This document shows positions 2,477 through 61,800 of a stretch of 64,000 bases of DNA, one piece after another. The notes under the pieces were generated by a model. The model was not told the origin of the DNA. It did no database searches and saw nothing but the letters and a program-made list of their open reading frames with translations. The stretch is from an uncultured Thermodesulfobacteriota bacterium (GTDB lineage: Bacteria; Desulfobacterota; Anaeroferrophillalia; Anaeroferrophillales; Tharpellaceae): assembly GCA_964457755.1 (NCBI GenBank), contig CAYWGC010000001.1:128332-192331 (forward strand), given 5' to 3'. The position numbers were made by a program, and so were the translations under genes. Positions within the stretch are counted from its first letter, which is position 1. Every line of letters begins with the position of its first letter.

Positions 2477-4495
2477 ATGAGAAGAAAAAACTTTTCTTTT
2501 ATTTTGGGAATGGTAGCGATTTCCTGGTTCCTTGCATATCCAGTCTTGGCCGAAGACTATTTGCCATTCGATCTGGATCTGATTGTTAACCAGTGGATTA
2601 GTTCAAGTCATGCCGATGCCGATTCAGAATCATTCACCCACTGGGATGACGACGGTGAAATCCCCACCAGTTGCGCCACCTGTCATAGCAGTCCCGGCTA
2701 TCTTGATTTCCTTGGGGCTGACGGAACCAAAGCCGGGCAAGTAGATAAACCCGCACCTTTGGGCACCGTTGTCGGCTGCATTACCTGTCACAACGAGGAA
2801 GCTGCCTGGCTCGATGAAGTCACCTTTCCTTCAGGCGTAACGATCAACGATCTGGGTGCCGAAGCCCGCTGCATGGTCTGCCACCAGGGCCGCGCATCAG
2901 GCTTGGATGTCGATGCGGCGATTGCCGAGGCCGAGGTTGCCGATGATGATGAGGTCAGTGGCTCTCTTGGTTTTATCAACATCCATTATTACGCTACCGG
3001 GGCGACCCTTTACGGCGCTCAAGCGCATGGCGGCTATCAATATGAAGGCAAGAGCTATGACCTCAAATTCGACCATGTGGATGGCTTTGATACCTGCATA
3101 GGATGTCATGACCAGCATTCTCTTGAGGTCAGAATTAATGGAAAAGTCAGGGGCAGCGAGTGTAAAGATTGTCATGCCAAAGTTTCAACTGTAGCCGACC
3201 TGAAAAATATCCGCATGAACGGTTCTATGGTCGACTATGACGGTGACGGCAGTATTAGCGAAGGGATTGCCGGTGAAATCAGCACCCTCCAGGAAAAGTT
3301 GTATGAAATCATCCAGACTTATACCGGCTCCGTAACCGAAAGCCCGATTATTTACGATTCCCATTCCTATCCCTACTGGTTTGTCGACAGCAATGCCAAT
3401 AGTGAAGTCGATGCCGGCGAGACCTCTTACGGCAATCGCTATGGCTCTTGGAGCGCCCGCCTGCTCAAGGCAACTTACAACTATCAGACATCTCTCAAAG
3501 ACCCGGGCGCCTATGCCCACAATGCCAAATACATAATCGAGCTGCTTTATGATTCAATTGCCGATATCAACTCGGCCCTGCCCGAAGCTGAGCAAATGGA
3601 TATCAGCGCTCTCAATCGGGTTGACGGACCCCATTTTGACGGTACCAAAGAGGCTTTCCGGCATTGGGATGACGACGGCGAAGTTTCGGCCAGTTGTGGC
3701 AAATGTCACGGCCAGTACGGACTCGCCGAATTTCTCAACTACGGCAACAACCGTACCACCGAACTGATGACCGACGGTATGGCCTGCATCAACTGCCATG
3801 GAATTGATGCTGAGGGCCGCACCTCCTACAGCGAGATCTGGGATACCGGCAGTGGAGTAGTTTTCCCTTCCGGGGCTGAAGTCTCATTAGACAACAACAG
3901 CCAGCTCTGCATGAACTGTCATAGCGGTCGAGCTTTCGGGGGCGACGTCGTCGCCGGGAAATTCAGCAATATCCACTACTATCCTTCCGCCGCAGTCTTC
4001 TTTGGAGCCGAGGTTCAGGGTGGTTATGAGTATGCCGGCAAAAGCTACGCTGGCCAGAACCTCTACCCCAGCCACCCCGCCGACCTGAGCACCTGCAGCG
4101 GTTGCCATATCCAGGTGGACAATCGGGTTAAGCATCAATTCAAACCTTCGCTTGACCTCTGTAACTGGTGCCATAGCGGCGATTCATTTGCAAAATTGAG
4201 CGGTCTACCCAAAGCTTATCACGCCACGCTCATGAGCCTCGGAGAACAGCTAAGCACCCAGATCCAGAGTTATGCTGCAGCCAACGGGATGACGGCAGTA
4301 CACCTGGATCACTATCCCTACTGGTCGGGTACCAGTACCTGGGATATGAATTTATCCGGAGCAGCTTATAACTATCAAGTCTACCTCAAGGAACCAGGGG
4401 CTTACATGCACAACGGTGCCTATGTCGGCCAACTCTTGTATGACGCCATTGAAGATCTTGGAGGTCAGCCTACGGTAAACCGTCCCGGCAACTAA
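2477..4495 (+). CDS. Secreted decaheme c-type cytochrome (10 CxxCH) built from a tandem duplicated pentaheme module; occupies the MtrC/OmcA position of an mtrCAB-like cluster
   Basis: ATG at 2477 preceded by AGGGAGG; signal peptide MRRKNFSFILGMVAISWFLAYPVLA. Ten CxxCH motifs: CATCH, CITCH, CMVCH, CIGCH, CKDCH, CGKCH, CINCH, CMNCH, CSGCH, CNWCH. Clear repeat between halves (THWDDDGEIPTSCATCH vs FRHWDDDGEVSASCGKCH; YNYQTSLKDPGAYAHN vs YNYQVYLKEPGAYMHN). Confidence 0.85.
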   Translation: MRRKNFSFILGMVAISWFLAYPVLAEDYLPFDLDLIVNQWISSSHADADSESFTHWDDDGEIPTSCATCHSSPGYLDFLGADGTKAGQVDKPAPLGTVVGCITCHNEEAAWLDEVTFPSGVTINDLGAEARCMVCHQGRASGLDVDAAIAEAEVADDDEVSGSLGFINIHYYATGATLYGAQAHGGYQYEGKSYDLKFDHVDGFDTCIGCHDQHSLEVRINGKVRGSECKDCHAKVSTVADLKNIRMNGSMVDYDGDGSISEGIAGEISTLQEKLYEIIQTYTGSVTESPIIYDSHSYPYWFVDSNANSEVDAGETSYGNRYGSWSARLLKATYNYQTSLKDPGAYAHNAKYIIELLYDSIADINSALPEAEQMDISALNRVDGPHFDGTKEAFRHWDDDGEVSASCGKCHGQYGLAEFLNYGNNRTTELMTDGMACINCHGIDAEGRTSYSEIWDTGSGVVFPSGAEVSLDNNSQLCMNCHSGRAFGGDVVAGKFSNIHYYPSAAVFFGAEVQGGYEYAGKSYAGQNLYPSHPADLSTCSGCHIQVDNRVKHQFKPSLDLCNWCHSGDSFAKLSGLPKAYHATLMSLGEQLSTQIQSYAAANGMTAVHLDHYPYWSGTSTWDMNLSGAAYNYQVYLKEPGAYMHNGAYVGQLLYDAIEDLGGQPTVNRPGN

Positions 4496-4500
4496 GAGTG

Positions 4501-4550
4501 AAAAGAATAAAAGGGCTGTCCCCCCTACCGGGATGGCCCTTTTATTCTTC
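4501..4550 (+). terminator. Rho-independent terminator downstream of the decaheme cytochrome gene
   Basis: Stem AAGAATAAAAGGGC / GCCCTTTTATTCTT around a C-rich loop, followed by a T-rich tract. Confidence 0.6.
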
Positions 4551-4706
4551 ACCACCAATTTTAAAGAAAAATAAAGCTGGACCTAAACAGCTCTAATCGC
4601 TACACAGGAAACAACGTTATTCTGCTGGCGGAAAACTCCATCGACAGAATAACTGATTACAGATTCGAACAACAGATAAATCACAGCGCTGGAAAAGGAG
4701 GAGGGT

Positions 4707-5594
4707 ATGCCCAAAGAGGGAAAAAACAGACTCTTGTTGTCACTGAGTATTTTGCTGGTTCTTTCGGCTGGCTTGTTCACAGCCGTACCCGCCTGGACCG
4801 AGACCAATCTCTGCGCGGAATGCCATGAGGAGGTCAGTGCTGCTTTCACAAAGACCGTCCATGGTCGAGTTGGAATCAGCCATGATTTCGACTGCCAATC
4901 CTGCCATGGCAGCGCCGCAACTCACTTGAACGAGCCCTCCCGTAAAAATATTGTCTCTTTTGCTAAAGAGGCAGGACCGAGTGTTATCGAACAAAACCGG
5001 CGATGTCTGGAATGCCACGATAATACACCCCAAGTCGCCCTCTGGGAGATGGGAAGCCACAGCCGCAACGATGTTGCCTGTGTCAGCTGCCATTCGATTC
5101 ACAACCAGCGTTCCCAGGTTGATCAGCCAGCGGTTTGCTATACCTGCCACCGTTCGCTCCGCCTGACCGCGAACAAGATCTCGCATCACCCCATCACTGA
5201 AGGCAAAATTAAATGCAGCGACTGTCACAACAGCCATGGCACCCTTTTACCTAAGATGTTAGTGGAAGACAACATTAACCAACTCTGCTACCGCTGTCAC
5301 GCTGAAAAACGGGGGCCGTTTGTCTGGGAGCACCCACCGGTTGCAGAAAACTGCGCCACCTGTCATGAACCCCACGGCAGCCGCCATGAAAACTTGTTAA
5401 AAGAGAAGGTCGCCAACCTCTGCCAAGACTGCCATAATGCCGATCTCCATTCCAGCCGGGCTTACGATGCCAAAGCGGGTTTTTCCAGTGCTGGCCGAGC
5501 CCGCAGCATCGGCTTTGCCGGACGCTCCTGTTTGAACTGCCACGGCAACATTCACGGCAGCACCCAATTTGACCAACGCAGCTTCACAAGATAA
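4707..5594 (+). CDS. mtrA-like: Periplasmic decaheme c-type cytochrome, MtrA/DmsE/PioA family
   Basis: 295 aa. Signal peptide. Ten CxxCH motifs (CAECH, CQSCH, CLECH, CVSCH, CYTCH, CSDCH, CYRCH, CATCH, CQDCH, CLNCH) with the dense spacing typical of MtrA. RBS GGAGGAGGG upstream. Immediately followed (12 nt) by a large porin gene. Confidence 0.85.
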   Translation: MPKEGKNRLLLSLSILLVLSAGLFTAVPAWTETNLCAECHEEVSAAFTKTVHGRVGISHDFDCQSCHGSAATHLNEPSRKNIVSFAKEAGPSVIEQNRRCLECHDNTPQVALWEMGSHSRNDVACVSCHSIHNQRSQVDQPAVCYTCHRSLRLTANKISHHPITEGKIKCSDCHNSHGTLLPKMLVEDNINQLCYRCHAEKRGPFVWEHPPVAENCATCHEPHGSRHENLLKEKVANLCQDCHNADLHSSRAYDAKAGFSSAGRARSIGFAGRSCLNCHGNIHGSTQFDQRSFTR

Positions 5595-5605
5595 GGGAGG
5601 CAGAG

Positions 5606-7618
5606 ATGAAAAAAGCAGTTTATGCTCTGATTATTTTAGTTATGCTCGCCTCACAGACGTTTGCCGCAGCAGATGCAAAAGTCGAGGTTCAGGGATCAAT
5701 TGAGGCAGGTTACCGGATGGTTGATGATCAGAACGGCAACAATGCCCGTTTTCTCGAATACCGTGACCTTGATGATGATCCCTTCGGCGGTTTTGACCTG
5801 AGTCTGCAAAGGGGAACCTATTATTTGAACTTGCAGGGCAATAATATTGCCCAAGATGACCAGTCGTACCTGGTCGAAGGTACGGATTACCGGAACTTCG
5901 CCTTTACTCTTTTCTATGATGAAACACCCCATAATCTCAGCTTCGATGCCAGAGCTCCATATACGGGAATCGGCCACCAAGACCTTCAGCTGGCCCCGTC
6001 AACTAGCGACATGACCACTTTTGATTACAGCGTCGAGCGTGAAGAGTTTGGCGGCTATGCAACCCTCTCCTTAGGCACCCCTTTTTACCTTACCATGGGC
6101 GTTTTACGCCGCCAACAAGACGGCATTAAACCTCTGGGCAGTGGCGATTACTGGCGTAACCTGGAGTTGCCGGAACCGGTGGATTACACCACCGACGAGA
6201 TTACTTTTAAGGGGGGATACCACGGCCAAAACCTGCAGGCCTCTCTCAAGGGATACTGGAGTAAATTTGACAACGACAATGAGTCCATGACCCGGCCTTA
6301 CACAGGCGACATATTAACGTTACCTCCCGACAATGATTACGGTAAAATTGCTGCTCAGATGAGCTGGCGAAACCTGCCCTTACAATCCTTGCTGGCAATC
6401 CAGCTCAGCTATGCCAAACTGGAAAGCGACATCTCCCTTAAAGATATGGGCCTGACAAATACGGGCGGACTCTACAAAACTACCTTTGATGGTGATATAA
6501 CCTACACCAGAGGTGCCATCGCTCTTACCTCTCGGCCCACCTCTAAACTGGACACCCGAGTCTACTTCAACTATCTGGACAAGGATAATAACTCGGACAA
6601 GATCTCCGCCAGCCAAGAAAGCCAGATTTCTGACTACAATGAATACAAAACCGGCATCGACATGGGCTACAATCTGGCCCGGCATACCAAACTTTCCGCC
6701 GGCTATGAATATCGGGATATTGACCGTCACAACCGGCCTGATGCTGAAACAACCACCGACCAGTGTGTCTTTTTTGAGGTTAAAAACAGCAATCTCGATT
6801 TCCTGACTGCCAGACTGCACTACAAGAGATTGGAACGTGACTCGGACTTCGGTAACAAAAACCGTGGCACTGACCCGGTTACCAACAATGGGGAATGGAT
6901 AAAACGCTATATTCGGCCCTATGATGCCACCGATAAAAGTATGGATGAGATAAAACTGATTCTGGAACTTTATCCTCTACCACAACTGGACTTCGGCTTT
7001 GAATATAGTTATAAAATGAATGATTATGATGAGACCGATCTCGGCCTTACCAAAGACAAACGCCACACTCTAAATACTGATTTCGTTTGGCGGGCGACCG
7101 ACAAGGTTACCCTCAGCGGCTTTGTCGGTTACGAAAAGACGGAGGCTGACAGCGATCATCGGCAATTCGCAGCCGGTGAGTCAGCCGACATCTATGACAA
7201 CACTGACAGTGCCTTCAACTGGAATCAGGACAGAGACGATGATTATTGGGCCTGTGGTTTAGCCTTGGATTTTCCCAATATAGTGAAAAAACTGGATCTT
7301 CATTGCGCATGGCAATATCAGGATTCAGACGGCGAAGTCAGTTTCAGCTCCCCAGACGGACTGCTTGAAGATATCAATCAGTCCGACGATTATGACCTAC
7401 AGAAACTCGAGGTCCAGCTCACCTACGCCCTGCGAGACAACACCGATATAACCTTGGGCTACCTCTATGAGAAATATGACTATGACGACCTGCAGTTTGC
7501 AGATTATGAAGCTTACACACCGACCGGTACGATACCTGGCAGCTATCTTACCGGAGCCTATTATGAGCAAAGCTATAAGGCCAATGTCGGCTATCTCATG
7601 GTTTCTTATAATTTTTGA
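5606..7618 (+). CDS. mtrB-like: MtrB/PioB-family outer-membrane beta-barrel (porin partner of the decaheme cytochrome)
   Basis: 670 aa. Signal peptide MKKAVYALIILVMLASQTFAAADA. Alternating amphipathic beta-strands with short Asp/Asn-rich turns. C-terminal ...VGYLMVSYNF. Size and position 3' of the mtrA-like gene match MtrB/PioB. Confidence 0.75.
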   Translation: MKKAVYALIILVMLASQTFAAADAKVEVQGSIEAGYRMVDDQNGNNARFLEYRDLDDDPFGGFDLSLQRGTYYLNLQGNNIAQDDQSYLVEGTDYRNFAFTLFYDETPHNLSFDARAPYTGIGHQDLQLAPSTSDMTTFDYSVEREEFGGYATLSLGTPFYLTMGVLRRQQDGIKPLGSGDYWRNLELPEPVDYTTDEITFKGGYHGQNLQASLKGYWSKFDNDNESMTRPYTGDILTLPPDNDYGKIAAQMSWRNLPLQSLLAIQLSYAKLESDISLKDMGLTNTGGLYKTTFDGDITYTRGAIALTSRPTSKLDTRVYFNYLDKDNNSDKISASQESQISDYNEYKTGIDMGYNLARHTKLSAGYEYRDIDRHNRPDAETTTDQCVFFEVKNSNLDFLTARLHYKRLERDSDFGNKNRGTDPVTNNGEWIKRYIRPYDATDKSMDEIKLILELYPLPQLDFGFEYSYKMNDYDETDLGLTKDKRHTLNTDFVWRATDKVTLSGFVGYEKTEADSDHRQFAAGESADIYDNTDSAFNWNQDRDDDYWACGLALDFPNIVKKLDLHCAWQYQDSDGEVSFSSPDGLLEDINQSDDYDLQKLEVQLTYALRDNTDITLGYLYEKYDYDDLQFADYEAYTPTGTIPGSYLTGAYYEQSYKANVGYLMVSYNF

Positions 7619-7672
7619 TGGTTCATAATAACTTCAGCTTCCGTTTTCAGACAACCATAACAGAAACAAAAA

Positions 7673-7706
7673 AGGCCGTTTTCAATGAAGAAAACGGCCT
7701 TTTTGA
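7673..7706 (+). terminator. Rho-independent terminator after the mtrB-like gene
   Basis: GGCCGTTTT...AAAACGGCC hairpin followed by TTTTTG. Confidence 0.6.
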
Positions 7707-7916
7707 TATCTGGCTCAACCGTCTGGACAACTGCAATAACCTTCCAGATTCATTCCAAGATAAATCTAAGCCCTTGAAAACAGAGCCTTCTTTGAAGATC
7801 AAAAAGAAGAGCCCTCTGGGAGCAGCCGAAAAATCAAAAATTTAGCAAAAACCCTTGTCAAATCTTTTTTTTGTTCTTTTTAATTTTTTTACGCTGAATA
7901 GTTACCTATTTTGTAA

Positions 7917-8090
7917 CTATTTTCTGGTTACCGGATTAATGCTGCCAGCACAATGGGCCCCTTTATCTAGTTCATCATCGTAGATCTGAATATTGGTCTT
8001 ACCGCATTTGGGACAGACTTTCAGATCTTTTTGATCCGGGGTTAAATGTTTTTCGTAGTCACAATCCATACATAAGAGTCTTAAGGCCAT
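7917..8090 (-). CDS. Small zinc-ribbon protein, FmdB-like (57 aa); not in the ORF track because it is under 60 aa
   Basis: Hand translation of the minus strand: MALRLLCMDCDYEKHLTPDQKDLKVCPKCGKTNIQIYDDELDKGAHCAGSINPVTRK. CxxC...CPxCG zinc ribbon. AGGAGA RBS 6 nt upstream of the ATG. Confidence 0.6.
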   Translation of the reverse strand: MALRLLCMDCDYEKHLTPDQKDLKVCPKCGKTNIQIYDDELDKGAHCAGSINPVTRK

Positions 8091-9993: not shown

Positions 9994-10096
9994 TACAGAC
10001 CCCAAGTTTACGAGTTAACGATATGACCTGTTTGCTAAACATAACACATTTTATCTAGATTGCAAGGAAAAAGTCGGTGGGTGGTCGGTGGAAGGA

Positions 10097-22903: not shown

Positions 22904-24301
22904 ATGGCTGGATTACAATGGCAAAAACTGAAGCTTATGGCCGGGCTGCTATTGGGGTGTTGCTTGCTGACAACATCCGGATTTGCCCTGGAGTTGGGTG
23001 GCGCCGATATCTCAATCAGGAGTACCACCGAATATCGACTGCAATGGTCTGACAGTCCGGCGAATTACATGATTGTCGACGAGGATCAGGACCAGGATAT
23101 TTTTGAAACCCTGGCGATTGATGTTAACTGGCAAGACTTAGGCCTGATCTTCTCTTCGATGGCCACCTACGTTAAAGATCTGGACGGCACCCGCCAAGGC
23201 TCAATCTTCCAGGACTACACTGATAGCCGTGGTAGCCATCGGCAGGATTTTCAATGCTATTACGCTTATCTGGAAAAAACCGGCCTCTTTAGCAACGATC
23301 TCACGGTCAGAGCTGGCCGCCAATATGCCTACGGCGCCGAGACCGTACAGTTTGACGGGGTCTGGGCCCATTACGACCGCCCCCAATGGCTGGGACTGGA
23401 AGTTGAAGCTTTTGGCGGCCTCGCGGTTCAGCACTACAGTGACCTTGGACCGGATGGCATTGGCGGAGCAAATGTTAGGATTCGCCCGCTGCCGGGCCTC
23501 TCTCTTGATTTAAATACTGTGATTTTTGAAGAGACCTCATGGGAGTCCTCAATCTACTGGCAGCCTTCTGAACTCTGGAAATTTCGCAGCCGCATCGCCT
23601 TCATTAATGATCATACTCGTTTTTTCGACAGCGGCCTTGAAACCACTATCGCGGCAACCGGCACTGTCCTCGATTTCTCCTTCTATCGGCGTTTCGCCAT
23701 CTCTTCAGAGGCCGACTTCCTTTTCGACTTCAGTTATACCCTCGATGAAGCTTTAAACTCGGAGATGAATCGCCTCTATCTGATGCAAGAACAGGGTTAT
23801 CTCGAATTTGATGTCCGCATCAGCCAACCGATCTCTATTGTCAAAGGACTTACCCTCTTCGGTCGCTACACCAATCGCAGTCTCGCTCATGGCGAGGATG
23901 AAAACCTCTACAACACCGATTTTGAAAGGGTAACCACCGGTTTTGACCTTGATCAGTGCTTTGGTTGGCAGGGTTTTCGCTGTAGTGCCGGATTCAGCCA
24001 ATGGTGGGAGGATCGAGATCAGTTTTACGAAGGGGAGTCAACCTCCTGGTTTGTCGATCTCGAACAGGAGTTATTCCACAGGCTTGAACTTGAAGCTGGC
24101 TACTACCATAAAACCGAGAATGTCAACAGCCTCCTCGAAGATGAGGCCTCAACCAGCTACCGGGCGGCGATCGCCTATCGACTTTGCGACCACTCGCGCG
24201 TCGAGATCTCTTATGAATACGCGCAAGATGATTTCTACGAAGATGAGCTGGGAGTTGACTACATTAACTCTCTAACTATCTCACTTGATCTTAATTTCTA
24301 A
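22904..24301 (+). CDS. Outer-membrane beta-barrel protein (465 aa), putative porin of a porin-cytochrome complex
   Basis: Signal peptide; beta-strand periodicity; C-terminal ...ISLDLNF; directly upstream of two multiheme cytochrome genes. Confidence 0.6.
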   Translation: MAGLQWQKLKLMAGLLLGCCLLTTSGFALELGGADISIRSTTEYRLQWSDSPANYMIVDEDQDQDIFETLAIDVNWQDLGLIFSSMATYVKDLDGTRQGSIFQDYTDSRGSHRQDFQCYYAYLEKTGLFSNDLTVRAGRQYAYGAETVQFDGVWAHYDRPQWLGLEVEAFGGLAVQHYSDLGPDGIGGANVRIRPLPGLSLDLNTVIFEETSWESSIYWQPSELWKFRSRIAFINDHTRFFDSGLETTIAATGTVLDFSFYRRFAISSEADFLFDFSYTLDEALNSEMNRLYLMQEQGYLEFDVRISQPISIVKGLTLFGRYTNRSLAHGEDENLYNTDFERVTTGFDLDQCFGWQGFRCSAGFSQWWEDRDQFYEGESTSWFVDLEQELFHRLELEAGYYHKTENVNSLLEDEASTSYRAAIAYRLCDHSRVEISYEYAQDDFYEDELGVDYINSLTISLDLNF

Positions 24302-24353
24302 AGTAACAAGGTCTCTCAAAATCATTAACAATTATATTATACAGGCAATTTCT

Positions 24354-25253
24354 ATGAGTATGCATAAGAGAAAATTATTCTGGGTTGGGCTTATGGCAAT
24401 CGCCCTTGGTGCCCTGGTTCTGGGAGCCTGCAAATCTTCGGTAGGCCTCAAATTCAGCCACCGCTCCCACATTGTCGAACAGGAAGCCACCTGTGACCAA
24501 TGCCACAAAAAAGATGCCAACGGCAATCTGGCTGCCGCCACTATGGCTGACTGCCAGGAGTGCCACGAGATCAATGTCAACGAGCCCTCTAAGGAGTGTC
24601 TTCTCTGCCATACACCGGAAAGTGCGGCCAAGGATTACGAGATCGAGAGAGCTGGAAAACCGGCAAATTACACTGACCTGATTTTCAGTCATAAGACTCA
24701 TACAGACCTTGCCTGCGACTCCTGCCACACCTCCATGGGCCAGAATTACAACCTTAAAAACGGTCCCTTTATGGTCGTTTGCCTCAACTGCCATAAGAAT
24801 CAGGGCGCTCCCATGGAGTGCGAAGCCTGCCACACTGTCTTAAGAGCTGATCAAGCTCCGGCAAGCCATCATCAAGACTGGGAAGCCAAACATGGCTTTG
24901 CCAGCCGTTTATCGGACTCCTGCTCCTACTGCCACCCGAACCGTCAGGCTTTTTGCGAAAAGTGCCACCAGACCGAAAAACCAAAAGATCACAAGTTTGG
25001 CTGGAAAACCACCGGCCACGGGGTTGAAGCGACCCATGATCGCCGCACCTGCGCCACCTGTCACTCGGCCGGCTACTGTGTCGATTGCCACAAACACCAG
25101 AAACCGGTCTCCCACTTTCGCGGCGACTGGATGGCCTATCAACGTGACAACGGTCACGGCGAGGCGGCCCGACGTAATTTCCGCAGCTGCAACGTCTGTC
25201 ATGAGACGGGTGAGTGTATGCAGTGTCATAAAGGTATAATTTTAAGGAAATAA
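24354..25253 (+). CDS. Dodecaheme c-type cytochrome, lipoprotein (12 CxxCH in about 300 aa)
   Basis: Lipobox LVLGAC after MSMHKRKLFWVGLMAIALGA. Twelve CxxCH motifs: CDQCH, CQECH, CLLCH, CDSCH, CLNCH, CEACH, CSYCH, CEKCH, CATCH, CVDCH, CNVCH, CMQCH. Confidence 0.85.
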   Translation: MSMHKRKLFWVGLMAIALGALVLGACKSSVGLKFSHRSHIVEQEATCDQCHKKDANGNLAAATMADCQECHEINVNEPSKECLLCHTPESAAKDYEIERAGKPANYTDLIFSHKTHTDLACDSCHTSMGQNYNLKNGPFMVVCLNCHKNQGAPMECEACHTVLRADQAPASHHQDWEAKHGFASRLSDSCSYCHPNRQAFCEKCHQTEKPKDHKFGWKTTGHGVEATHDRRTCATCHSAGYCVDCHKHQKPVSHFRGDWMAYQRDNGHGEAARRNFRSCNVCHETGECMQCHKGIILRK

Positions 25254-25340
25254 TATTTTCGCTGCAATGAGTTTTGTTTTTTATAAATTAAAATATTCTT
25301 TTTACCCTCACAATATTTTTCAACCCTTGGAGGTAGCTCG

Positions 25341-28300
25341 ATGAAAAAAATTTACCCCATTATCCTGGGAGCCTTCTTACTGGTCCTCACCCCTCTGCTG
25401 GTCGGTGCAACGCACCCCCCGGTAACCCTTTACGACGGTCACGGTAATCGCATCATTGATCAACTTGATGACAGCGAAATCGTTACTGCGGCCGGCGGCT
25501 CAACTTACAAAGCCGGGCCGCCCTACAGCCCCAAACAGACCTGCGGCAAATGTCATGACTACCACGAAGTCACCAAAGCCTACCATTTTCGTGAAGGCGC
25601 CGGTGAAGACGGCCAAGGTATCAGTGATACCTGGAGCAGTGAGAATCAGGACAACCCGCTCTACAAATACCTGGCCAATGCTTATGGACATCTTTTGAGC
25701 CCGGGTCAATTTGGAGCGTGGTGACCGCCGTCTTACCGCCAGGTGGCGGTAAAAAAAGAGCGCGGCCACTTCCTTGATCCTTTTACCTCTGAAGATAAAC
25801 CTTACTTTTTTGACATGGGAACCGCAGATCACATTGCCACTTGTGAATCTTGCCATCCCGGTGGTGGTCCGGTTGAAGGTATCGTCAATATGGATGGGAC
25901 GATGACCCAGTTTGACGACCCCAGTCTGGCACCCGAACACTCTTACGATCGTGACTTTTACGGTTACAGTTCCAACGATCTCACCATGGCTATTTATGGT
26001 TCTGATTCGATTTCGGAAACCATGGCCAATATCGGCGACCCCAAACCCCACGACTGGTCCAAATCCGGCGTCGTTGAAGCCGACTGCCTGCTCTGCCACA
26101 TCGATCCAGAAAGTGCTTACAGCTACCGAGCTGCTGATGGTCTTAAAGTGCAGTCCTTCCGCCCCCGGATGATGATTTTCGCGGAACGCGACGAAAATTT
26201 CAAGGCCCAGAAAATTTCTTTTGGGATGCCAACCAAAGTTGGCCTCGAAAACAGTTCGGCCCTCTACTACAGTGACAGCCTGCAACGCATGGGTCGACCG
26301 ACACCAATGATGGCTTTAGGTCAACTACCAAAAGAGATTGTCGGCGAGATGATGCAGATGTGGGTTGACGGTCTTGCCGGAATTGAAGCCCAGGGCATCA
26401 ACCTGCCTTTCGCCCTTTACGGCCAGAATATCAGTAAAATCTGGGAAACCAACGGCATGCTCAAGGCAGCCTACTGCGCCAACCCCAACGGCGTCATGGA
26501 TGAAATGGGCCGCCTCCAGGGAGCTCAAGCTGCAATTGGCTCACTCTTTCAGGGATTTCTCCAATTCATGATTGGCAAAGGTTTATTACCGCCGGATGCC
26601 GACATGAATATACTAATGGGCCTTTTCTTTAATGATTTCATCTACGCCTATCAGCTGCAATTTCCCAACGATATGCTTTTGCCGATTCCTTACGCTCTTA
26701 GAGCTTACGAACCCGGCAAATTCTACACTAACTGGGACAGTTTTCACGCCTCAACCCGTGACTATATCCGCTCCGGCCTGATCGAAGGCGAGGGCATTCC
26801 CTATGTCGGCAAAAACGGTACGGAATTGAGTGCCACCATGTACGGCATGGGCAAGATTATGCAGGGCGACTATACTTATGTCAACCAGGCAACCGGTCAA
26901 CTTGATCTCTCTCTGGTCATTCAGGACCTCCAGGAAGGTAAAATTCCGGAAGGTGAGATCAATCCGGTACTCCATGATTATCTGCCGAGTTTCTTCAACT
27001 ATATGCCCTCCGGCGAACTCATGGGCCTCGACTTTAACCAGGACGGGGCTCCAGTTACCTATCTGCGGATAGATCGCGATGGTGATGACTGGACACCAAA
27101 AGTCTTTTACAATCTCGCTGATATCGGGGCTGACGGGGTTCTCCCCATGGCCGAGATGTTTGGTGGCAGCAAAGACCGAGAAAGTTATAAATGGGTAAAA
27201 GTTTGTGGTCAGTGTCATGTCATGACCAAGGATCACGGCAACAGCGAATGGACCAAAGCCCGTCTCTACAATATGGGTTTCCCGGCCGATTATGTCAAAA
27301 ACGGTCACTACGTCAATTTTACCGATGATCAGGAAGATCGCGGCTACGATGTTCATATGTCGGGTAAATGGATGGGTTGCGGCAGCTGTCATCTGCGCGA
27401 TAACGGATCTTTGAACGACAAGCATAATTTTCTAAAAGGGGTCGATACGGCCCACATGGTGCGTAACGATCTTGATGCCAACCCCAGGGTCAAAAGCTGT
27501 GAAGGTTGTCACCTTGCAGGCGAAGGGCACGGCAGCAACCCAGCCCTCAAACATGAAGAAGTTTTCGGCGAAAGCACCGGTCGCCATCTCTCTGAAGTCT
27601 CCTGCCAGGCCTGTCATGTACCCTTCAGGAAAACCTGGCGCTTTAGAGCTTTTGATGACACTTTAGGCTACTACGCCAACTTTGATAACCTCATGGGTTA
27701 CAACATTCTGCCCGGCGGCGATGGCGCAATCATGGCCTTTCCCTCACCAGCTTATGCAATCTCACCGGTCTACTCCTGTTCCCCGGGCTATGGCATTCCT
27801 CACTTCAATATGCTTGCCAACCACATTGAAGCCGATGGCCAGGGCATTGAATCTATGGATGTCCAGTCGCAGATGGTTGACTACTTCTTTATGGACGGTG
27901 AGTCCGATCCCGGCCAGATGGTCAACGGCATGCCGACCAACTTTAAATTTGACTTCTGGAAATATTTTCTTCAGGCCGGTTACGAAGGCATGAAGGCGAT
28001 GGGTGTCCCCCTCGAGTATACCGATCTCACCGATAACGAAGTTTTTCCGCCGCTCTACTATGCAAACGGCATCAACGGTTATCCGCAGGTGGTTACTGGC
28101 AATCCGATCACGGTTATGACCTGGGTCGACACCAACCCCCAACCGGATGCTGACATGAGTGAGATGGCTTATAGCGGTGCCCGTATTCTCTATCTCAAAG
28201 AGATGAATGCGATCATTAGAGATTACAAACGCCCAACTAAACTGGGCATGGTTAACCCTATGGATCTGGCGATGATTCCGGCTAATGACCCGACCTGGGC

Positions 28301-29360
28301 TGAAAATCCCTATGTCGGACGCGTAATCCTTAAAGAGAGTGGTTACGTTATCTTTGACCATACCGGCGACATGTTCCCCGATATCTGGTGGGACGAAGAT
28401 GTCAGAGCGGTCCAGGAGTCCCTCAAAAAAGTCCTTATCGCTGAAGGCGGCACCGACCCCAACCCGGTAATGTTTCTTGCAGCTCACTACTTCTCCGACA
28501 GCCATGGGGTGCAACCTAAAGAGTACTCTTTAGGGGCCAAGTCCTGTAATGACTGTCATGGTGACGTAACCAAGGATGCCGGGGCCCTGCGGGTTACCGA
28601 CCGCATCATCTCTTATCTGCCTTGGGCTCCACCCTGGTTTAGAGATGAAAACCGGGCTATGCGTTACGACCCTGAACAGGGTATGATCCCAGCCAACCCC
28701 GACGGTCTCTTCATTGTTGATGGCGAAATCGACTACGTCCAAGCAATCGAAGCCAACGGCATGCGTTTTCTTGGCGCCAGAGAGAAAGATATTCTCAAAC
28801 TCAGTCACCATCATGCAGAAGCCCTCTTCACTTTAGCTTCCGAAGGAACGGTTACCGGTGACTCAATCTTCGGCGTTGACCCGACCCTGCTGTCTCCTGA
28901 AGAAAGAGCCACGGAATATGCTAAACAGGTCGTCAACGGCCCCTGGATGGATAAAACCCATTTCTACATCCCGCAAGAGCTTAAACCACAACTTGCCGGT
29001 TTAGGTTTTGTTGTCGGCGGTAAAGAGGATGTCTACTTAAGTGGCCGCGGCTTTGCTCAAGCCTACACGCTGCGCTATGAACTTATGGCTCCGCATGAAG
29101 TAGATAACGCAGCCGTCAGGACACATGCTTTACCGGCTGCCATTATCCGCCTGCCCTTTACCGGTAGCACGCCAGAAATCTGGACTATGGGTGAACACGA
29201 CACCTTCTTTAAACTTGACACCAACGCCGTTATTGTCGGCCACCAGAGCGCCTACGTTCTCGTCAAGGTCAATAACCCTGGCGAGTATGTCGCGGTCGAA
29301 CAGGGAGCCGGCGGTGGCAACGCTCTGCTTTATGACCTCTGGGGGGCTTTCTTCAAGTAG
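25341..29360 (+). CDS. Very large octaheme c-type cytochrome (about 1340 aa if read through). The N-terminal signal-peptide/monoheme segment (25341-25721) and the 1205-aa heptaheme body (25743-29360) are in the same frame, separated only by TGA at 25722-25724. Either a selenocysteine or read-through gene, or a recent pseudogene.
   Basis: Frame arithmetic: (25743-25341) is divisible by 3. The first segment has the signal peptide MKKIYPIILGAFLLVLTPLLVGA and CGKCH. The second has CESCH, CLLCH, CGQCH, CGSCH, CEGCH, CQACH and CNDCH but no export signal of its own. Haem density is low, implying large non-haem domains. Confidence 0.6.
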
Positions 29361-51922: not shown

Positions 51923-54856
51923 CTACCAGGCTTTATCGTAAATCTCCTTGAAATCAGCCAAAGAGTAGAGAATCGGATTAGCGCCGGAAGCTAGGTCATT
52001 AGACGCATGGGCAACCAGCTCGGGAATATCGTCTTTACTGATTTTGATCCGACAGACATCGGCAAGTTCGGTGACCGTTTTCGGTACTCCGATACTCTCC
52101 ATGAGAATTTTAACCGCTCCGACAGCCTTGTCGGCAGCAGCATCGACACTTAAACCAGCCGTATCGACACCCATCGCCTGAGCAATTTCCGCCATCAGCT
52201 CGGGCACCGCCGACTTGTTCCTGGTCATAACGTAAGGCAGCATAATCGCGTTGGCATTACCATGGGGCATACTGTAAATTGCCCCAAGCGCATGCGCCAA
52301 AGAGTGAGCATTACCAAGTTGGGCGCTGTTAAAGGCGAGACCGGCACTGTACTGAGCCTGACACATAATGTCGCGAGCTTCCAAATCATCGCCATTTTCT
52401 ACAGCGCGGGGCAGAGCTTTAGCGATCATTTTGATGGCACCCAAAGCCAGACCCTGAGCATAGGGAGTCGTAAGCTTAGAGGTGTAGGATTCAATCGCAT
52501 GAGTCAAGGCATCCATCCCCGTCCCGGCCGTGATGTGAGGCGGCATGGAACGAGTCAGTAAAGGATCATTAACGGCAACGATAGGCAATAGTTTTGGGTC
52601 GACAATCGGGGCTTTGAGGTGGCGTTCAGGATCAGAAATAACCGCCACAACTGTGGCCTCAGCTCCGGTTCCCGAAGTCGTATTGACCGCAACCAATACC
52701 GGACCCGACTGCCAAACTCCAAACAGTCCCATGTAATCGACAATACTGCCGGGATTATTGACCATTACGCCGATGGCCTTGGCACAATCATGCGGGCTAC
52801 CGCCGCCAAGAGAAACCAGACAATCACACTTTTCCTGACGAAAAACATCAAGACCTTCCTCAACATTGGTAACTGTAGGATTGGGCTGAGTTCCGTCATA
52901 AACAGCGTAATCGAAAAATTTAGCATCCATAGCATCTGTAAGAATTTCAAGGATGCCAACATCAACCACCCCTTTATCGGTAACAATCAAAGCTTTTTTC
53001 AAACCCATAGCTGCAAGATTATCAGGCACCAGCATATGGCAGCCCTCCCCCATCAAAGCTATCGGTGGGGCAAAGGCCATTTTCGTATTACCCATAATTT
53101 TAAGAATGATGCCAGTATGGTTATGGACTTCGTCAAGGATCTCTTCCGGTACATCGAAAACTGAGTTATGCGGAGGCAGGGCCTCTTTAGTCATCCATTC
53201 CGGCAGGCGATCATCTTTGCTCGTAAAACCGGCTCTTCGATTAAAATCCCGCTCCATCCGCAAAATGCGAATGCCGAAGGCGGCAAACGTATTTTCATTA
53301 AAACCAAGTCCGGTAAAGGCACTCATGCTTTCCAGAATATATTTAATAACTTCGGGTTTGTCTATAGAGGCCATTCCCAAGAAAAGACAAAAACCGGTGG
53401 TATCAAATGCAGCGGCACTGATCTGAGCCACAGCTGAAGGCAAAAGTTGATTATCCTTATCTAAAGGGCCGGAAGATGGCTCCAAGCCAAACAAGTGATT
53501 ACCCAACGTAAAACCGGCAGTATGATCAGCACCCATAGTTGACGTGGCATACGTAACCCCCATCCCCTTCATAGCCCGGGGATCGTAGGCAGGCATCGCC
53601 TGGCCTTTCATCACCGGTGCCCGTTCAACGCCGTAATGTTTAGCCACGGTCGCCGTTCCGGAACCGAATAGGCGGCCTTTATCCGTCCCCTTGCCAATCT
53701 CCAAGAGAAGTTTAAGTACGCCTTGGGCATCACCAAATGCCAGTTCACCGGCTTCCATAAGCACACCCATGGTGCAGCCGGTCTCGATCGTATCCAGACC
53801 AAAATCATCATTTAAGCGATCCATCCGAGCAATCGCATCGAGATCGGCAATCCCGCAATTACCGCCATGCGCCCAGAGGGTTTCATATTCCGGTTGTTTA
53901 CTGACAAAGTTACCATCTTTATCATTGAACGTGCCGGAACATTTAATTATACACCCATTATGACAGGCGTGCGTCGCTGCACCTTTACCGCCGCGCTCCT
54001 CTTCAAGCGCAGACAGGGTTGGCCCGTTGATAGCATCAGCCTGATCAAATTGCCCCTTGGAACAGTTGTAAGCGGGAAAGCATCCGGCTTGATTAGTAAT
54101 ATCCATCAAAATTGCAGTGCCATAAGCCGGCAGGCCCTGGCCGGTCATTTCGGAAGAACGCACAGTCTCTGCCAATTTACGGTTGGCCTCCTTAAAAGCT
54201 TCAGGAGCAACCGGCTTACGCAGAGAGCTACCGTTGGAATCGACCACGATAACCTTAATTCCTTTAGCCCCCATAACTGCACCAACTCCACCTCGAGCCG
54301 CATGCCGGGTTGGCCGAAAATCAGTATCCGTAAAAGCTACAGTAGAGTTAGCAAGACCCTGTTCACCCGCCGGGCCGATGCTGATCATCGCCACCTTGGC
54401 GCCGTGTTCGGTCTTTATTTTTTCAGCCAGATCGTAGTTACCGAGCATCCGATACTCATTACATAAAGAGATCTTAACCCCACTCTTATCGATAATAATT
54501 TTGTAAAGGTCATCATTCTTTCTTTCGCCTTCCAGAACTACGGCTGCATATCCCAACCGAGCTAGATATTGAGAGGCCTGCCCACCGGTGTTGGCCTCCT
54601 TGATGCCGCCGGTTAACGGACTTTTACAACCAACGGAAAGTCTACCCGAAGTAGTCGCCGCCGAACCGCTCATCATACCCGGCGCTAAAATCAGCTTATT
54701 TTCCGAACCTAAAGGGTCACATTGAGGAGGCACCTCCTCCCAAACTATTGTTGAAGTCATGGCCCGCCCGCCAAGGCCAGAGTAACGTCCAACCGAACTG
54801 ATTGTTACAGCGGGGCCACCCATGGTGCCAACATCGATCCGCAAAATATTTTCCAT
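51923..54856 (-). CDS. Fusion protein: tungsten-type aldehyde:ferredoxin oxidoreductase (AOR, N-terminal about 600 aa) plus iron-containing alcohol dehydrogenase (Fe-ADH, C-terminal about 380 aa)
   Basis: Single uninterrupted ORF. AOR motifs (N-terminal LRIDVGT, pterin/4Fe-4S cysteines, ...GxDxxxxG). Then Fe-ADH motifs (GGGSPHDCAKAIG; metal-binding His cluster HAIESYT / GNAHSLAHALG). Start moved to the ATG at 54856 with an AGGAGA RBS. Confidence 0.7.
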   Translation of the reverse strand: MENILRIDVGTMGGPAVTISSVGRYSGLGGRAMTSTIVWEEVPPQCDPLGSENKLILAPGMMSGSAATTSGRLSVGCKSPLTGGIKEANTGGQASQYLARLGYAAVVLEGERKNDDLYKIIIDKSGVKISLCNEYRMLGNYDLAEKIKTEHGAKVAMISIGPAGEQGLANSTVAFTDTDFRPTRHAARGGVGAVMGAKGIKVIVVDSNGSSLRKPVAPEAFKEANRKLAETVRSSEMTGQGLPAYGTAILMDITNQAGCFPAYNCSKGQFDQADAINGPTLSALEEERGGKGAATHACHNGCIIKCSGTFNDKDGNFVSKQPEYETLWAHGGNCGIADLDAIARMDRLNDDFGLDTIETGCTMGVLMEAGELAFGDAQGVLKLLLEIGKGTDKGRLFGSGTATVAKHYGVERAPVMKGQAMPAYDPRAMKGMGVTYATSTMGADHTAGFTLGNHLFGLEPSSGPLDKDNQLLPSAVAQISAAAFDTTGFCLFLGMASIDKPEVIKYILESMSAFTGLGFNENTFAAFGIRILRMERDFNRRAGFTSKDDRLPEWMTKEALPPHNSVFDVPEEILDEVHNHTGIILKIMGNTKMAFAPPIALMGEGCHMLVPDNLAAMGLKKALIVTDKGVVDVGILEILTDAMDAKFFDYAVYDGTQPNPTVTNVEEGLDVFRQEKCDCLVSLGGGSPHDCAKAIGVMVNNPGSIVDYMGLFGVWQSGPVLVAVNTTSGTGAEATVVAVISDPERHLKAPIVDPKLLPIVAVNDPLLTRSMPPHITAGTGMDALTHAIESYTSKLTTPYAQGLALGAIKMIAKALPRAVENGDDLEARDIMCQAQYSAGLAFNSAQLGNAHSLAHALGAIYSMPHGNANAIMLPYVMTRNKSAVPELMAEIAQAMGVDTAGLSVDAAADKAVGAVKILMESIGVPKTVTELADVCRIKISKDDIPELVAHASNDLASGANPILYSLADFKEIYDKAW

Positions 54857-55269
54857 TCCGATTCTCCTTTTTCCCTGGAATATAAAAAAAACTACGGCGG
54901 GCGCGGCCCGCATCCCAATCAAGTGATTTTAATTAAATTTGAAAAAATACGAACTTTGCTTTCGCCCTCTTGAGAAGTAACTTTAACAGTAAAAGACAAA
55001 ACAATAATATCTACCCATCTACCAACGGCAACATATATGCCACCCATTACAGACCGCTCGACCGACCATTCTACAACATTGTAAAGACGGGATTTCAATT
55101 TACAAGGGTGTCATTAATGACCCTATCTAATAAGAAAATTGCTTTACACATTTGATTTTACAGATAAATACCAGACATTGCCAAAAATGGCGCCAAACGC
55201 ACCCATTATCAATAAAAAAGAAGAAACGGACCACCGAACTATCAGAAAAAGGCGGCTGCCAGGGAGGGA

Positions 55270-58886: not shown

Positions 58887-61800
58887 TTACAACCCATCTT
58901 CGTGAGATAGGAGTCCGCATGATTTCATCTTGCGATAAAGCGTCTTGCGGCCTATGCCGAGAATTGATGCGACTCGAGTCCGGCTCCACTGATTCTCTTC
59001 CAGAAGACGGCCAATATATCTTTTCTCAAACTCCACCACAACTTCATGTAAAGGACGGTCGGAAGATTCCACAGGTTCTATATTCAGCTCAACTGAGTCA
59101 GCCGGACTCTCGTCAGAATCAGCAATCCCCAAAAAATCCAGACGATTAAGGGCGACATACCGGTGCAATGTGTTTTGTAACTCCCGAACATTCCCGGACC
59201 ACTCATAGTCCAACATCCGGGAGACAACTTGGGCGGGCAAATGAGGCTCAGTTTTTTCATACCCGTTTGCATGCCAAAAATGTTCGATGAGCAGAGGGAT
59301 ATCTTCACGTCTTTCGCGCAGGGATGGCATATGTATAGGGAAGATATTAACCCGATAATAAAAATCTTCCCGCATCAGGCCTTTCACAACCTGATTTTTC
59401 AGACCCAGATTAGTTGCGGCGACAATGCGAAAGTCGGGTTTTTTTAACTCGCGACTTCCCAAAGGCGTAAAACCTCCCCCCTCCAGAGCCCGCAAAAGTT
59501 TAACTTGTAAATTGAGGCTGAGTTCACCTAATTCATCCAAAAACAGGGTACCCTTGTCAGCCAGCTCCAAAAAACCCTCTTTATCTGTAACGGCACCGGT
59601 AAAAGCCCCTTTTTTGTATCCGAAAAACTCACTTTCGAGTAAATTTTCCGGGATCGCACCACAGTTAACCGGAAGAAATCGGCCGCCTTTACGATCGCTC
59701 ATATCGTGAATAGCGCGAGCCGCCAACTCTTTGCCCGTACCTGATTTTCCATATATTATTACCGGCACATCAGTAGCTGCAGCCTTAATAATAAGTTCGT
59801 AAATTTCCTGCATAATCGCACTTTTGCCTATGATGTTGGCGAATTTATAGCGATCTTTAATGTTGGAACGTAAACGAATATTTTCTTTTCTCAGGTATTC
59901 TTCCCGACCCTGCAAAGCTTCCACAGCCTGCTTACATTCCGTTATATCAACAAAGAATCCTTCGATCAGTTTTATTGCTCCATTCTCCTCATAGACCGTT
60001 CGTGCATGCAGGGAAGCCCACATAACGCTTCCATCTTTACGCCGAAACTGAACTTCCAAGCCGGATATAGCTTGTTCACTCTGGATGAGATCGAGAAATT
60101 TATGCCGATCCGCCGAAGCCACGTACAACTGTTTGCCAATGTCATCGACACTATCTAACAACTCTTTGGTAGAGTCGTAACCCAAGAGCCGGGCCATAGC
60201 TGGATTGGCACTTAAAAACTTACCGTCCGGCGTAATTTGTAAAATACCTTCCACCGCATTTTCGAAAATACTGCGGTATTGTGCTTCGGTGGTTTTAAGG
60301 TTTGAAAAGAGTTTGGCATTTTCGACCGAAATGGCAATCTGAGTAGCCAGGATTTTTATTACTTCAAGCCTCTCAATCGTAAAAACCCCGGCCGACAAGC
60401 TGTTTTCCAGATAGATTATACCAGTCAGTTCCATCTTATGGATAATCGGGACGCACAAGATTGACCTAGAATTATTTCCTCTAATATATGGATCTTGCAC
60501 AAACCGTCCTTCGCGGAAAGCGTCGTATAAAACCACATTTTCCATGGTTCGAACCACATGCTCGACAATCTCCAAGCTTATATCTTTAAAATCTTCAACC
60601 GGAACTCCCGATCGCGAGAGCACTATCTCCTGGTCCAGAGTACTGTAAGCTTCGACCTCCAGACCGCCACTCTGCTTAAACATAAGAACACCTTTTTGGG
60701 CTCCAACATTCTCCATCAAGACTTTCATGAAAATATTGATAAGCTCGTCAATAAGGATCTCACTTGAGACGGCCTGGGAGGCTTTTATAACCGAGACCAG
60801 GTCGATGCCATCGAGCCGGGATTGTGCGGCGGCACCGGTGAAAGCAATTTCACCTTTGGCAATATAGTTAATCGCAGAATCGCTATTTTTCATCAGGTCG
60901 GGGTATTTTTTTTCCAGATGTTTTACCTTTCGCAGAGCCCCCCATTGCCTATAGCTGCTCCAAGCTTTATGCATATAGAGCCGGGCCAGAGTATCTTTAC
61001 CTTTATTCAGCCAGAACTTTGCGGTCAGTTCAAAGGAGAGAGCTTCTTCATTGATATAACCATTTTTATGGGCCTCAGCTATGGCCAGGTCGTAATGCTC
61101 GAAAGCCTCCATCTCACACCCCAAGATACGCAGACGCTCAGCTTCCACTAAAAGGTATTTATGACGATGATTCATCGGGGCATGATTGGCCCAAATTTCC
61201 ATCTTGCCTTGATTCTGAACCACTTTTCGTAATATTTCAGCCTTTTCCCCTTGCGCGGCCTTTGCATAGCAGGCCAAACGAATCAAAGAATCATAGAAGT
61301 AAAAAACCGGGACAACAAACATGGCGAGGGTGCCATCAAGGTAGCTCTCGGCCTGTCGAGCATCCTCCAATGCAAGTTCATATTCTGCAAACAGATAACC
61401 GAGAATCATCTTATTTAGGTAGAAATAGTTGAGTGCGTGTCGATCTTCAACTTGTCGATGCTGAGCCGGCATTACCCGTTCATCATACACCTCCCCCAGC
61501 AAGATGTGAGGCTCCCCCTTGCCTCCTCTCAGGTTTAAAACCGCCTGTTGAAAAACCGAATGAAAATGCAAAACGGTCACCTGCCGATGTTGCTTTAGCG
61601 CCAGATTGAAACGCTCCATCTCCTCCACTACCCAGGCCAGATCCTGACCTGATAAATAGGCGTGGGAGCATCGATTAAAGGCGCAGAAATCGGCAAATTG
61701 AAGGTCGCCGGTCGCCATGCCGCTCTGATACCCAGCCAGTAGAGGATCAAGCGTTTCACGAAGATGTTCCCTGTTATGACGAATATGGACATTAAAAACC

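Follow-up and report, generated by a model that had tools for sequence, protein, structure and literature searches.

We analysed a stretch of 64,000 nucleotides (nt) from an uncultured Thermodesulfobacteriota bacterium (contig CAYWGC010000001.1, positions 128,332 to 192,331 of the forward strand), in the following called the window, and focused on a cluster of three genes at positions 2477-7618 that encodes a putative outer-membrane electron conduit. As claimed in a preliminary description of the sequence, all three open reading frames (ORFs) are present and collinear on the + strand, and each starts with an ATG preceded by a Shine-Dalgarno motif (GGGAGG, GGAGGAGG and GGGAGG, respectively). 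Gene A (2477-4495) encodes a secreted decahaem c-type cytochrome of 672 amino acids (aa; not 673, as first stated) with ten CXXCH haem-binding motifs in two groups of five. It is followed by gene B (4707-5594), encoding a periplasmic decahaem cytochrome of the MtrA/DmsE family (295 aa, ten CXXCH motifs), and by gene C (5606-7618), encoding an outer-membrane beta-barrel of the MtrB/PioB family (670 aa, about 26 strands) that has no CXXCH motif and only three cysteines, at residues 387, 550 and 567. The gap between A and B measures 211 nt, that between B and C 11 nt rather than the 12 nt reported before. Read from the sequence, A carries a type I-like N-terminal signal peptide, MRRKNFSFILGMVAISWFLAYPVLA/EDY, which spans residues 1-25 (2477-2551, + strand) with the cleavage site (...YPVLA/EDY) placed by eye. 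All 20 cysteines of A sit within haem motifs and none occurs before residue 66, so that a lipobox is indeed missing, as had been noticed. A terminator-like hairpin, recognised by its folding energy and inverted repeat, lies directly 3' of the stop codon of A (4503-4549, + strand).

The assignment of B and C to an MtrA/MtrB pair is supported by curated profiles, by a solved complex and by fold. B matches the DmsE-family profile TIGR03508 with 250.2 bits (cut-off 192.2) over profile positions 3-255 of 258, and its residues 35-286 align with MtrA of the solved Mtr complex (6R2Q_A) at an expect value (E) of 1e-57, all ten CXXCH motifs (the first at residue 36, the last at 275) falling inside the alignment; the depositors' name for chain A of 6R2Q is evidently wrong, as the entry is the Mtr complex. 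NrfB, by comparison, is matched only at E 2.6e-6, and the NrfH and NrfB profile scores stay far under their cut-offs. The 295-aa cytochrome is thus MtrA/DmsE-like, as originally proposed, and does not group with NrfB/NapC-type proteins. For C, the Pfam family PF11854 (MtrB_PioB) scores 264.3 bits (cut-off 23) from end to end (profile positions 2-635 of 635). The NCBIfam profile TIGR03509 gives 207.8 bits, under its cut-off of 240.05, in an alignment that is nevertheless full-length (3-661 of 662), and we therefore regard C as a divergent member of the family. By sequence, C matches 6R2Q_B at E 1e-12. An AlphaFold model of C built with 52 homologues (predicted local distance difference test, pLDDT, 88.7) contains 27 long DSSP strand segments, two of which (185-191 and 194-206) we read as one bulged strand, giving a barrel of 26 strands; this lies within the expected range of 26-28 and not below 22. 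In Foldseek the model aligns with 6R2Q_B at E 5e-38 with template-modelling (TM) scores of 0.81/0.83 over 694 aligned columns at about 18% identity, while the next-best matches, 22-strand TonB-dependent receptors, reach TM scores of only about 0.4. The earlier call of a 670-aa MtrB/PioB-like barrel is borne out by both lines of evidence. An N-terminal CXXC is a feature of the MtrB of metal-reducing gammaproteobacteria; no such motif is present in C, nor within the first 120 residues of any of the 52 aligned relatives. A density of ten haem motifs within 295 aa, combined with family matches over the full length, lies far outside what chance would produce; by family and fold, B and C are a cytochrome of the MtrA/DmsE type and an MtrB/PioB barrel.

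The protein encoded by gene A is built differently from MtrC. Its two halves, spanning residues 33-345 and 374-642, share 30% identity (E 2e-38), which makes A a tandem duplication of a pentahaem module, and its model (pLDDT 85, predicted TM score 0.83) consists of helices and loops with four short strands only, without the two beta-barrel domains typical of MtrC-family proteins. Among PDB sequences, MtrC, OmcA, MtrF and UndA were matched neither by A alone (E<=1) nor by a profile of 56 family sequences (E<=10), and none of these proteins, nor 6R2Q_C, is among the 34 Foldseek matches of the A model in the PDB. The best of these matches are OmhA (6QVM, E 1.1e-3) and OcwA (6I5B, E 2.6e-3), followed by about 25 chains of NrfA and octahaem nitrite reductases; altogether 30 of the 34 belong to the OcwA/OmhA/NrfA group. 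These are weak similarities (E 1e-3 to 3e-3, TM scores 0.25-0.36, 16-17% identity) that go undetected by the sequence profile, and we take them as a possible lead on the fold class of A, not as membership. Ten histidines outside the motifs are invariant across 56 A homologues, five per module and paired in the repeat alignment, and all ten motifs are CXXCH, with no CXXCK or CX3-4CH motif in A. The sequences imply that all ten haems would be bis-histidine coordinated, and from the ten invariant histidines matching ten haems we infer that A is an electron carrier and no enzyme. An NrfA- or octahaem-type enzyme was considered as well and is unlikely, given that CXXCH is the only motif type and that an invariant distal histidine goes with each motif.

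These results bear on the proposal, made in the preliminary description, that gene order and size classes are those of Shewanella mtrCAB. As far as layout goes the proposal stands: order, size classes and the 10+10 haems mimic mtrCAB, A shares with the MtrC family the arrangement of ten haems in two fives and the gene position directly upstream of mtrA, and the Pfam domain PF22113 (MtrC/MtrF domains II/IV) scores 36.5 bits on A. This match is limited, however, to residues 538-572, a single haem-motif region, and PF22113 also matches B and generic multihaem proteins. The resemblance is one of layout only; A is no homologue of MtrC, matching neither this protein nor OmcA, MtrF or UndA by sequence or fold, and the locus is no mtrCAB in the homology sense. 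A laterally acquired Shewanella-type operon with a divergent MtrC orthologue, which is refuted on the homology of A, accordingly retains next to no credence with us. The barrel argues against it as well, as C shares only 18% identity with Shewanella MtrB when the structures are aligned, against 36-69% with proteins of metagenome-assembled genomes (MAGs) with Desulfobacterota names, and it has no N-terminal CXXC.

The suggested lateral acquisition is likewise not indicated by the data. The nearest relatives of C, at 36-69% identity, carry the names Desulfobulbaceae, Desulfobacteraceae, Desulfurivibrio, Desulfobulbus, Geobacter and 'Deltaproteobacteria'; Methylomirabilia and Burkholderiales MAGs follow at about 30-35%, and Shewanella MtrB is far more distant. 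An AsmA-like gene lies downstream of C in convergent orientation. Its best named matches are 'Deltaproteobacteria' MAGs, and a 65%-identical copy is found on the contig of a related locus, L004, that itself carries A-B-C. As the A, B and C proteins of L004 are 80, 68 and 69% identical to those of the window, the divergence of the module tracks that of the host envelope gene in the one genome that is comparable. The content of G and C is only slightly higher in the module than in the window (0.50 vs 0.47), and no mobile-element genes were seen among the scanned ORFs of the window. On these grounds (names of the relatives, AsmA tracking and lack of mobile-element genes among the scanned ORFs) a recent lateral transfer of the module was rejected. 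MtrAB has already been reported from Desulfobacterota, where the 'MtrC' is a member of the OmcA/MtrC family whose gene often lies at another place in the genome (PMC12133095); a previous survey had detected no mtrCAB in the phylum (PMC8805035).

Next to this conserved pair, gene A is a stable neighbour among close relatives. It lies directly upstream of mtrAB in every relative for which context is available and whose MtrB is at least 57% identical, i.e. in L004 and L012 (both 'Deltaproteobacteria' MAGs), L008 (a Desulfobulbaceae MAG) and L092 (another 'Deltaproteobacteria' MAG), with varying flanking genes. Identities of A, B and C to the window amount to 75, 62 and 58% in L012 and to 65, 58 and 63% in L008; in L092 two pieces of A are 77 and 73% identical and B and C 58 and 59%. 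Of the three proteins, A shows the highest identity in L004, L012 and L008, the relatives compared in full, and the gap between B and C in these three is 11-13 nt. In L092 (GCA_016933675.1, 2736-4755) A is called as two genes of 297 and 344 aa owing to a +1 frameshift near residue 297, which may be an assembly error or mark a pseudogene; we rejected the idea that two small cytochrome genes represent a pre-fusion state, as they are one A gene with a +1 frameshift. Relatives whose MtrB is at most 46% identical (L010, L093 and L094, the latter being Desulfobulbus elongatus DSM 2908) have mtrAB without A. Since these hold mtrAB only, the triad is best seen as a derived state of one subclade, and the A-B-C linkage is conserved within one small Desulfobacterota clade. 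All six members of this MtrAB-linked clade share an N-terminus like that of the window protein, with no lipobox. Their A proteins have furthermore lost one or two loops (DYDGDGD, DTNGNG), in the C-terminal module only (window 4140-4420, residues ~555-648); one of the two C-terminal loops is retained in L008, and both are retained in L089, where the A-family gene also lies beside an MtrA-type gene. In comparison, 92 of 108 ten-haem homologues have DYDGDG in both modules.

Beyond this clade, A belongs to a large family. A search returned at least 4,734 homologue clusters at E <= 1e-3, and a scan with one genome per species found a relative of A in at least 464 genomes; the neighbourhood and taxon counts given here refer to the best 80 species loci, and counts on N-termini to 120 homologues among the matches listed. 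Nearly all of the 80 loci are from Chloroflexota (Anaerolineae, Caldilineae, Ardenticatenia, Thermoflexales), with a minority from Pirellulales, Myxococcales, Acidimicrobiia, other Actinomycetota and Trueperaceae as well as one 'Deltaproteobacteria' MAG. The identity of A to family members is remarkably uniform across phyla (43-50%), with columns of the alignment averaging 56% identity. The homologues are usually annotated as 'cytochrome c3 family' or hypothetical, and our literature search found no paper describing the family. Surface cytochromes of Ardenticatena maritima 110S were considered as possible members; they carry at most seven haems per protein (PMC5808234), so that strain does not hold the family. 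Two size forms occur, one with 10 haems (~660-760 aa) and one of three modules with 14-15 haems (~1,030-1,080 aa). An origin of A from Chloroflexota is unsupported: a midpoint-rooted neighbour-joining tree without support values shows the MtrAB-linked proteins as a monophyletic group with a long stem, not nested within Chloroflexota.

At least 66 of the 120 listed homologues have a lipobox followed by a linker of 19-82 aa that is rich in Pro/Thr/Glu/Val or in Gly; the others mostly show a plain signal peptide or a membrane anchor. Such a lipobox and linker, found in most family members, would be as in surface-tethered proteins. We rejected the notion that only the MtrAB-linked clade is devoid of a lipobox: a regular expression finds none in 54 of the 120, of which at least five have a form missed by the pattern (e.g. 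LAPACSGG), some are N-terminally truncated, and many carry an ordinary signal peptide or are membrane-anchored. In the Chloroflexota-type neighbourhoods we found a lipoprotein with 8-9 haems and collagen-like repeats (36 of the 80 loci), a HisKA_3 kinase with a LuxR-type regulator (26-27 loci), a cytochrome b561-type protein (25 loci) and a NapC/NirT-like multihaem protein (20 loci). Taken together, these neighbourhoods look like an electron chain leading from the membrane outwards. The collagen-like Gly-X-Y repeats of the 8-9-haem lipoprotein are N-terminal (e.g. L028, 1677-2969; L031, 1720-2988), an unusual tether for a cytochrome.

In two further lineages the A family adjoins a different porin-cytochrome pair. 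Locus L089, from a MAG labelled Eubacteriales by its depositor, encodes a decahaem cytochrome of the DmsE family (197 bits, cut-off 192), a 620-aa barrel with marginal similarity to MtrB and an A-family lipoprotein, in this order, which differs from A-B-C. In L007, from Abyssubacteria, a 469-aa barrel is followed by a 14-haem lipoprotein and by an A-family lipoprotein that has 15 haems and a linker rich in Gly. The window contains a Pcc-like cluster related to the latter (22904-29360, + strand), made up of a 465-aa secreted protein, a 12-haem lipoprotein and a 1,205-aa protein with seven haems. The 465-aa protein (22904-24301, no Pfam match) is 24% identical to the L007 barrel (E 1e-8), and the 12-haem lipoprotein (322 aa, 24285-25253, ...LGACK) is 37% identical to the 14-haem cytochrome of L007 (E 5e-51); a gap at 25254-25742 holds a small ORF that resembles a 128-aa gene of the corresponding L004 cluster. 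The third member differs, being the 1,205-aa 7-haem protein in the window and an A-family protein in L007. The L004 counterpart of this cluster (84/77/67% identity) lies directly upstream of its A-B-C genes. The contrast with Geobacter Pcc modules drawn in the preliminary description therefore holds for 2477-7618, where sizes and families are of the MtrAB type, but it is incomplete, as the same window also has the Pcc-like cluster. From the MtrAB, Pcc-like and Chloroflexota contexts it follows that the A family is combined with three kinds of envelope-crossing partners.

The spacer between A and mtrAB holds two inverted repeats. The hairpin that follows A (-33.8 kcal/mol, z score -8.0) has a stem of 20 base pairs (bp) and is followed by TTTTATTCTT. 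An equivalent hairpin is found after A in L004 (~10029-10058), L008 (~6945-6980) and L012 (~8039-8065), i.e. in all four sequences examined including the window. Its 3' arm, GGGATGGCC, is invariant among them, with a variable 5' arm and a T-rich tail; for A proteins that are 65-80% identical, such strict invariance exceeds the needs of a plain terminator. The length of the spacer ranges from 85 nt (in L004) to 211 nt. Downstream of the hairpin and 54 nt upstream of the mtrA-like start, the window contains a perfect 9-bp inverted repeat, GTTATTCTG-N20-CAGAATAAC (4616-4653, no strand assigned), which might be the operator of a distinct promoter for mtrAB but may also have arisen by chance; a promoter scan found no more sites than in shuffled sequence. 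A bidirectional terminator-like hairpin with a 15-bp stem between A and T runs (7669-7704, no strand assigned) closes the cluster, and the 105-nt stretch that holds it (7616-7720) folds with -31 kcal/mol (z score -5.0).

One way to read this spacer is that A is an independent neighbour, separately transcribed, whose adjacency to mtrAB is a lineage-specific accident. The conserved hairpin between the genes and the possible operator would fit this, as would the near-absence of MtrA-family genes from the 80 species loci, 78 of which have none (L012 alone has B and C homologues, and L089 alone a DmsE-family decahaem gene). Against it, the adjacency persists from 85% down to 65% A identity in five further loci with differing flanks, and an adjacency to other porin-cytochrome pairs arose in two other lineages. 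We thus consider an accidental neighbourhood improbable.

Instead, we propose, with a confidence that is better than even but well short of certainty, that the cluster encodes an MtrAB conduit with the non-homologous secreted decahaem protein A in place of MtrC. In this conduit, B would thread through the ~26-strand barrel of C and form an insulated haem wire across the outer membrane, as in the solved complex. A, with its two NrfA/OcwA-like pentahaem modules, would occupy the position of MtrC as a pure electron-transfer protein and, on the cell surface, pass electrons between the outward end of MtrA and acceptors or donors outside the cell (minerals, partner cells, shuttles); docking on MtrAB, and not a lipid anchor, would hold it in place. 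As a conserved terminator-like hairpin follows its gene, A would probably be made in excess of mtrAB or regulated apart from it. Electrons could flow either way, the sequence giving no direction. The proposal draws on the identification of B and C described above, on the conserved A-B-C synteny and on the independent occurrence of the A family beside two other porin-cytochrome pairs, and further on the lipobox and linker of most family members, on their cytochrome b and NapC/NirT-like neighbours in Chloroflexota, on the surface reductases among the fold matches and on the ten invariant histidines; it is this comparative context that would place A outside the cell and in a complex with MtrAB.

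Several observations weigh against this placement of A: its plain signal peptide without any anchor, the lack of type II secretion genes adjoining its gene, the existence of mtrAB pairs without A, from which it follows that a conduit needs no A, and the conserved hairpin and 85-211-nt spacer, because of which A and mtrAB may not be co-transcribed. The same observations (a type I-like signal peptide with neither lipobox nor anchor, relatives with mtrAB only, a terminator-like hairpin between the genes and no adjacent secretion genes) would be accounted for if A were a soluble periplasmic decahaem protein that, like CctA/FccA or MtoD, carries electrons between inner-membrane quinol dehydrogenases and MtrA, with MtrAB alone serving as the conduit as in MtoAB and PioAB. 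This is the main alternative, but we regard it as rather unlikely: in two other diderm contexts the A-family protein is a lipoprotein and the third member beside a barrel and a cytochrome, the closest solved folds are those of cell-surface cytochromes, Chloroflexota members have long tether-like linkers, and a protein of 672 aa is far above the size of known periplasmic shuttles.

Three further parts of the window, outside the cluster, attracted our attention. Just upstream of it, short overlapping ORFs in different frames without Pfam match (216-910 and 1703-2092, + strand) flank a LolA-like/TP_0789-like gene (904-1770) and resemble remnants of a decayed gene, possibly of a transporter. At 51923-54922 (- strand) a 999-aa fusion protein combines a complete aldehyde:ferredoxin oxidoreductase (AFOR_N and AFOR_C) with an iron-type alcohol dehydrogenase (Fe-ADH and C-terminal domain). 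A 1,684-aa regulator (58887-63941, - strand), which ends within 60 nt of the window end, joins an N-terminal AAA_16 (STAND-like) ATPase to GAF, PAS, sigma-54 activator and HTH_8 domains.

Compared with known systems, the proposed conduit is closest in plan to Shewanella MtrCAB (6R2Q), with which it shares an MtrA homologue and a ~26-strand MtrB-type barrel encoded 11 nt apart, and a 10-haem secreted protein encoded upstream; the logic is likely the same, i.e. an insulated haem wire across the outer membrane plus an outer cytochrome. It differs from MtrCAB in the fold of A, which has no Greek-key beta-barrel domains and no lipobox, in the hairpin between A and mtrAB, in a barrel without N-terminal CXXC that is ~18% identical to MtrB, and in the length of B (295 vs 333 aa). 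In having an MtrAB core with no or another outer partner it resembles MtoAB, PioAB, DmsEF and the Mtr systems of Desulfobacterota (Shaw et al. 2025, PMC12133095), a phylum in which mtrAB are always adjacent according to that study. The 'MtrC' of that study is an OmcA/MtrC-family protein with a structural match to 6R2Q, whereas A shows no such match, and a partner of the A family has been described for none of the MtoAB, PioAB, DmsEF-type or Desulfobacterota Mtr systems. With Geobacter Pcc modules the locus shares the combination of a barrel with an inner and an outer cytochrome, and an A-family protein is the third member of the Abyssubacteria trio in L007; unlike Pcc, which has a porin of about 450 aa and cytochromes with 8 and 12 haems, it has a 670-aa MtrB-type barrel and an MtrA-type inner cytochrome. 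Both OcwA and OmhA act as terminal reductases on the surface of Gram-positive metal reducers (see also PMC7096707). The A model has a helical pentahaem-based architecture like that of OcwA (Thermincola potens, 6I5B), OmhA (the S-layer undecahaem protein of Carboxydothermus ferrireducens, 6QVM) and NrfA, but A differs from all three in having ten haems in two duplicated modules, and no open catalytic haem is expected.

The novelty of the locus lies in the partner, a conserved non-homologous decahaem protein from a large uncharacterised family that stands in the position of MtrC. Looking beyond this locus, we tentatively suggest, with slightly less than even confidence, that the A family is a widespread, hitherto uncharacterised class of surface terminal cytochromes, made of two or three tandem NrfA/OcwA-like pentahaem modules, that serves as a swappable outer module for at least three unrelated systems: MtrAB in the Desulfobacterota clade and in L089, Pcc-like pairs in Abyssubacteria, and cytochrome b/NapC chains in Chloroflexota. 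In the Desulfobacterota clade, MtrC would have given way to A, which on this view shed its lipid anchor together with two loops in its C-terminal module and would now dock directly on MtrAB. MtrAB is the best-understood route for electrons across the outer membrane, and the protein on the outside sets its reach and specificity. If A is this outside protein, the MtrC slot can take a non-homologous cytochrome. The replacement would then come from a Chloroflexota-dominated family that resembles the surface reductases of metal-reducing Gram-positive bacteria, and would link monoderm and diderm extracellular electron transfer via a swappable outer module. Surveys that call 'mtrCAB' by homologues of MtrC/OmcA would overlook such conduits, and a testable function would be at hand for a family that counts thousands of members among the Anaerolineae of sediments and wastewater.

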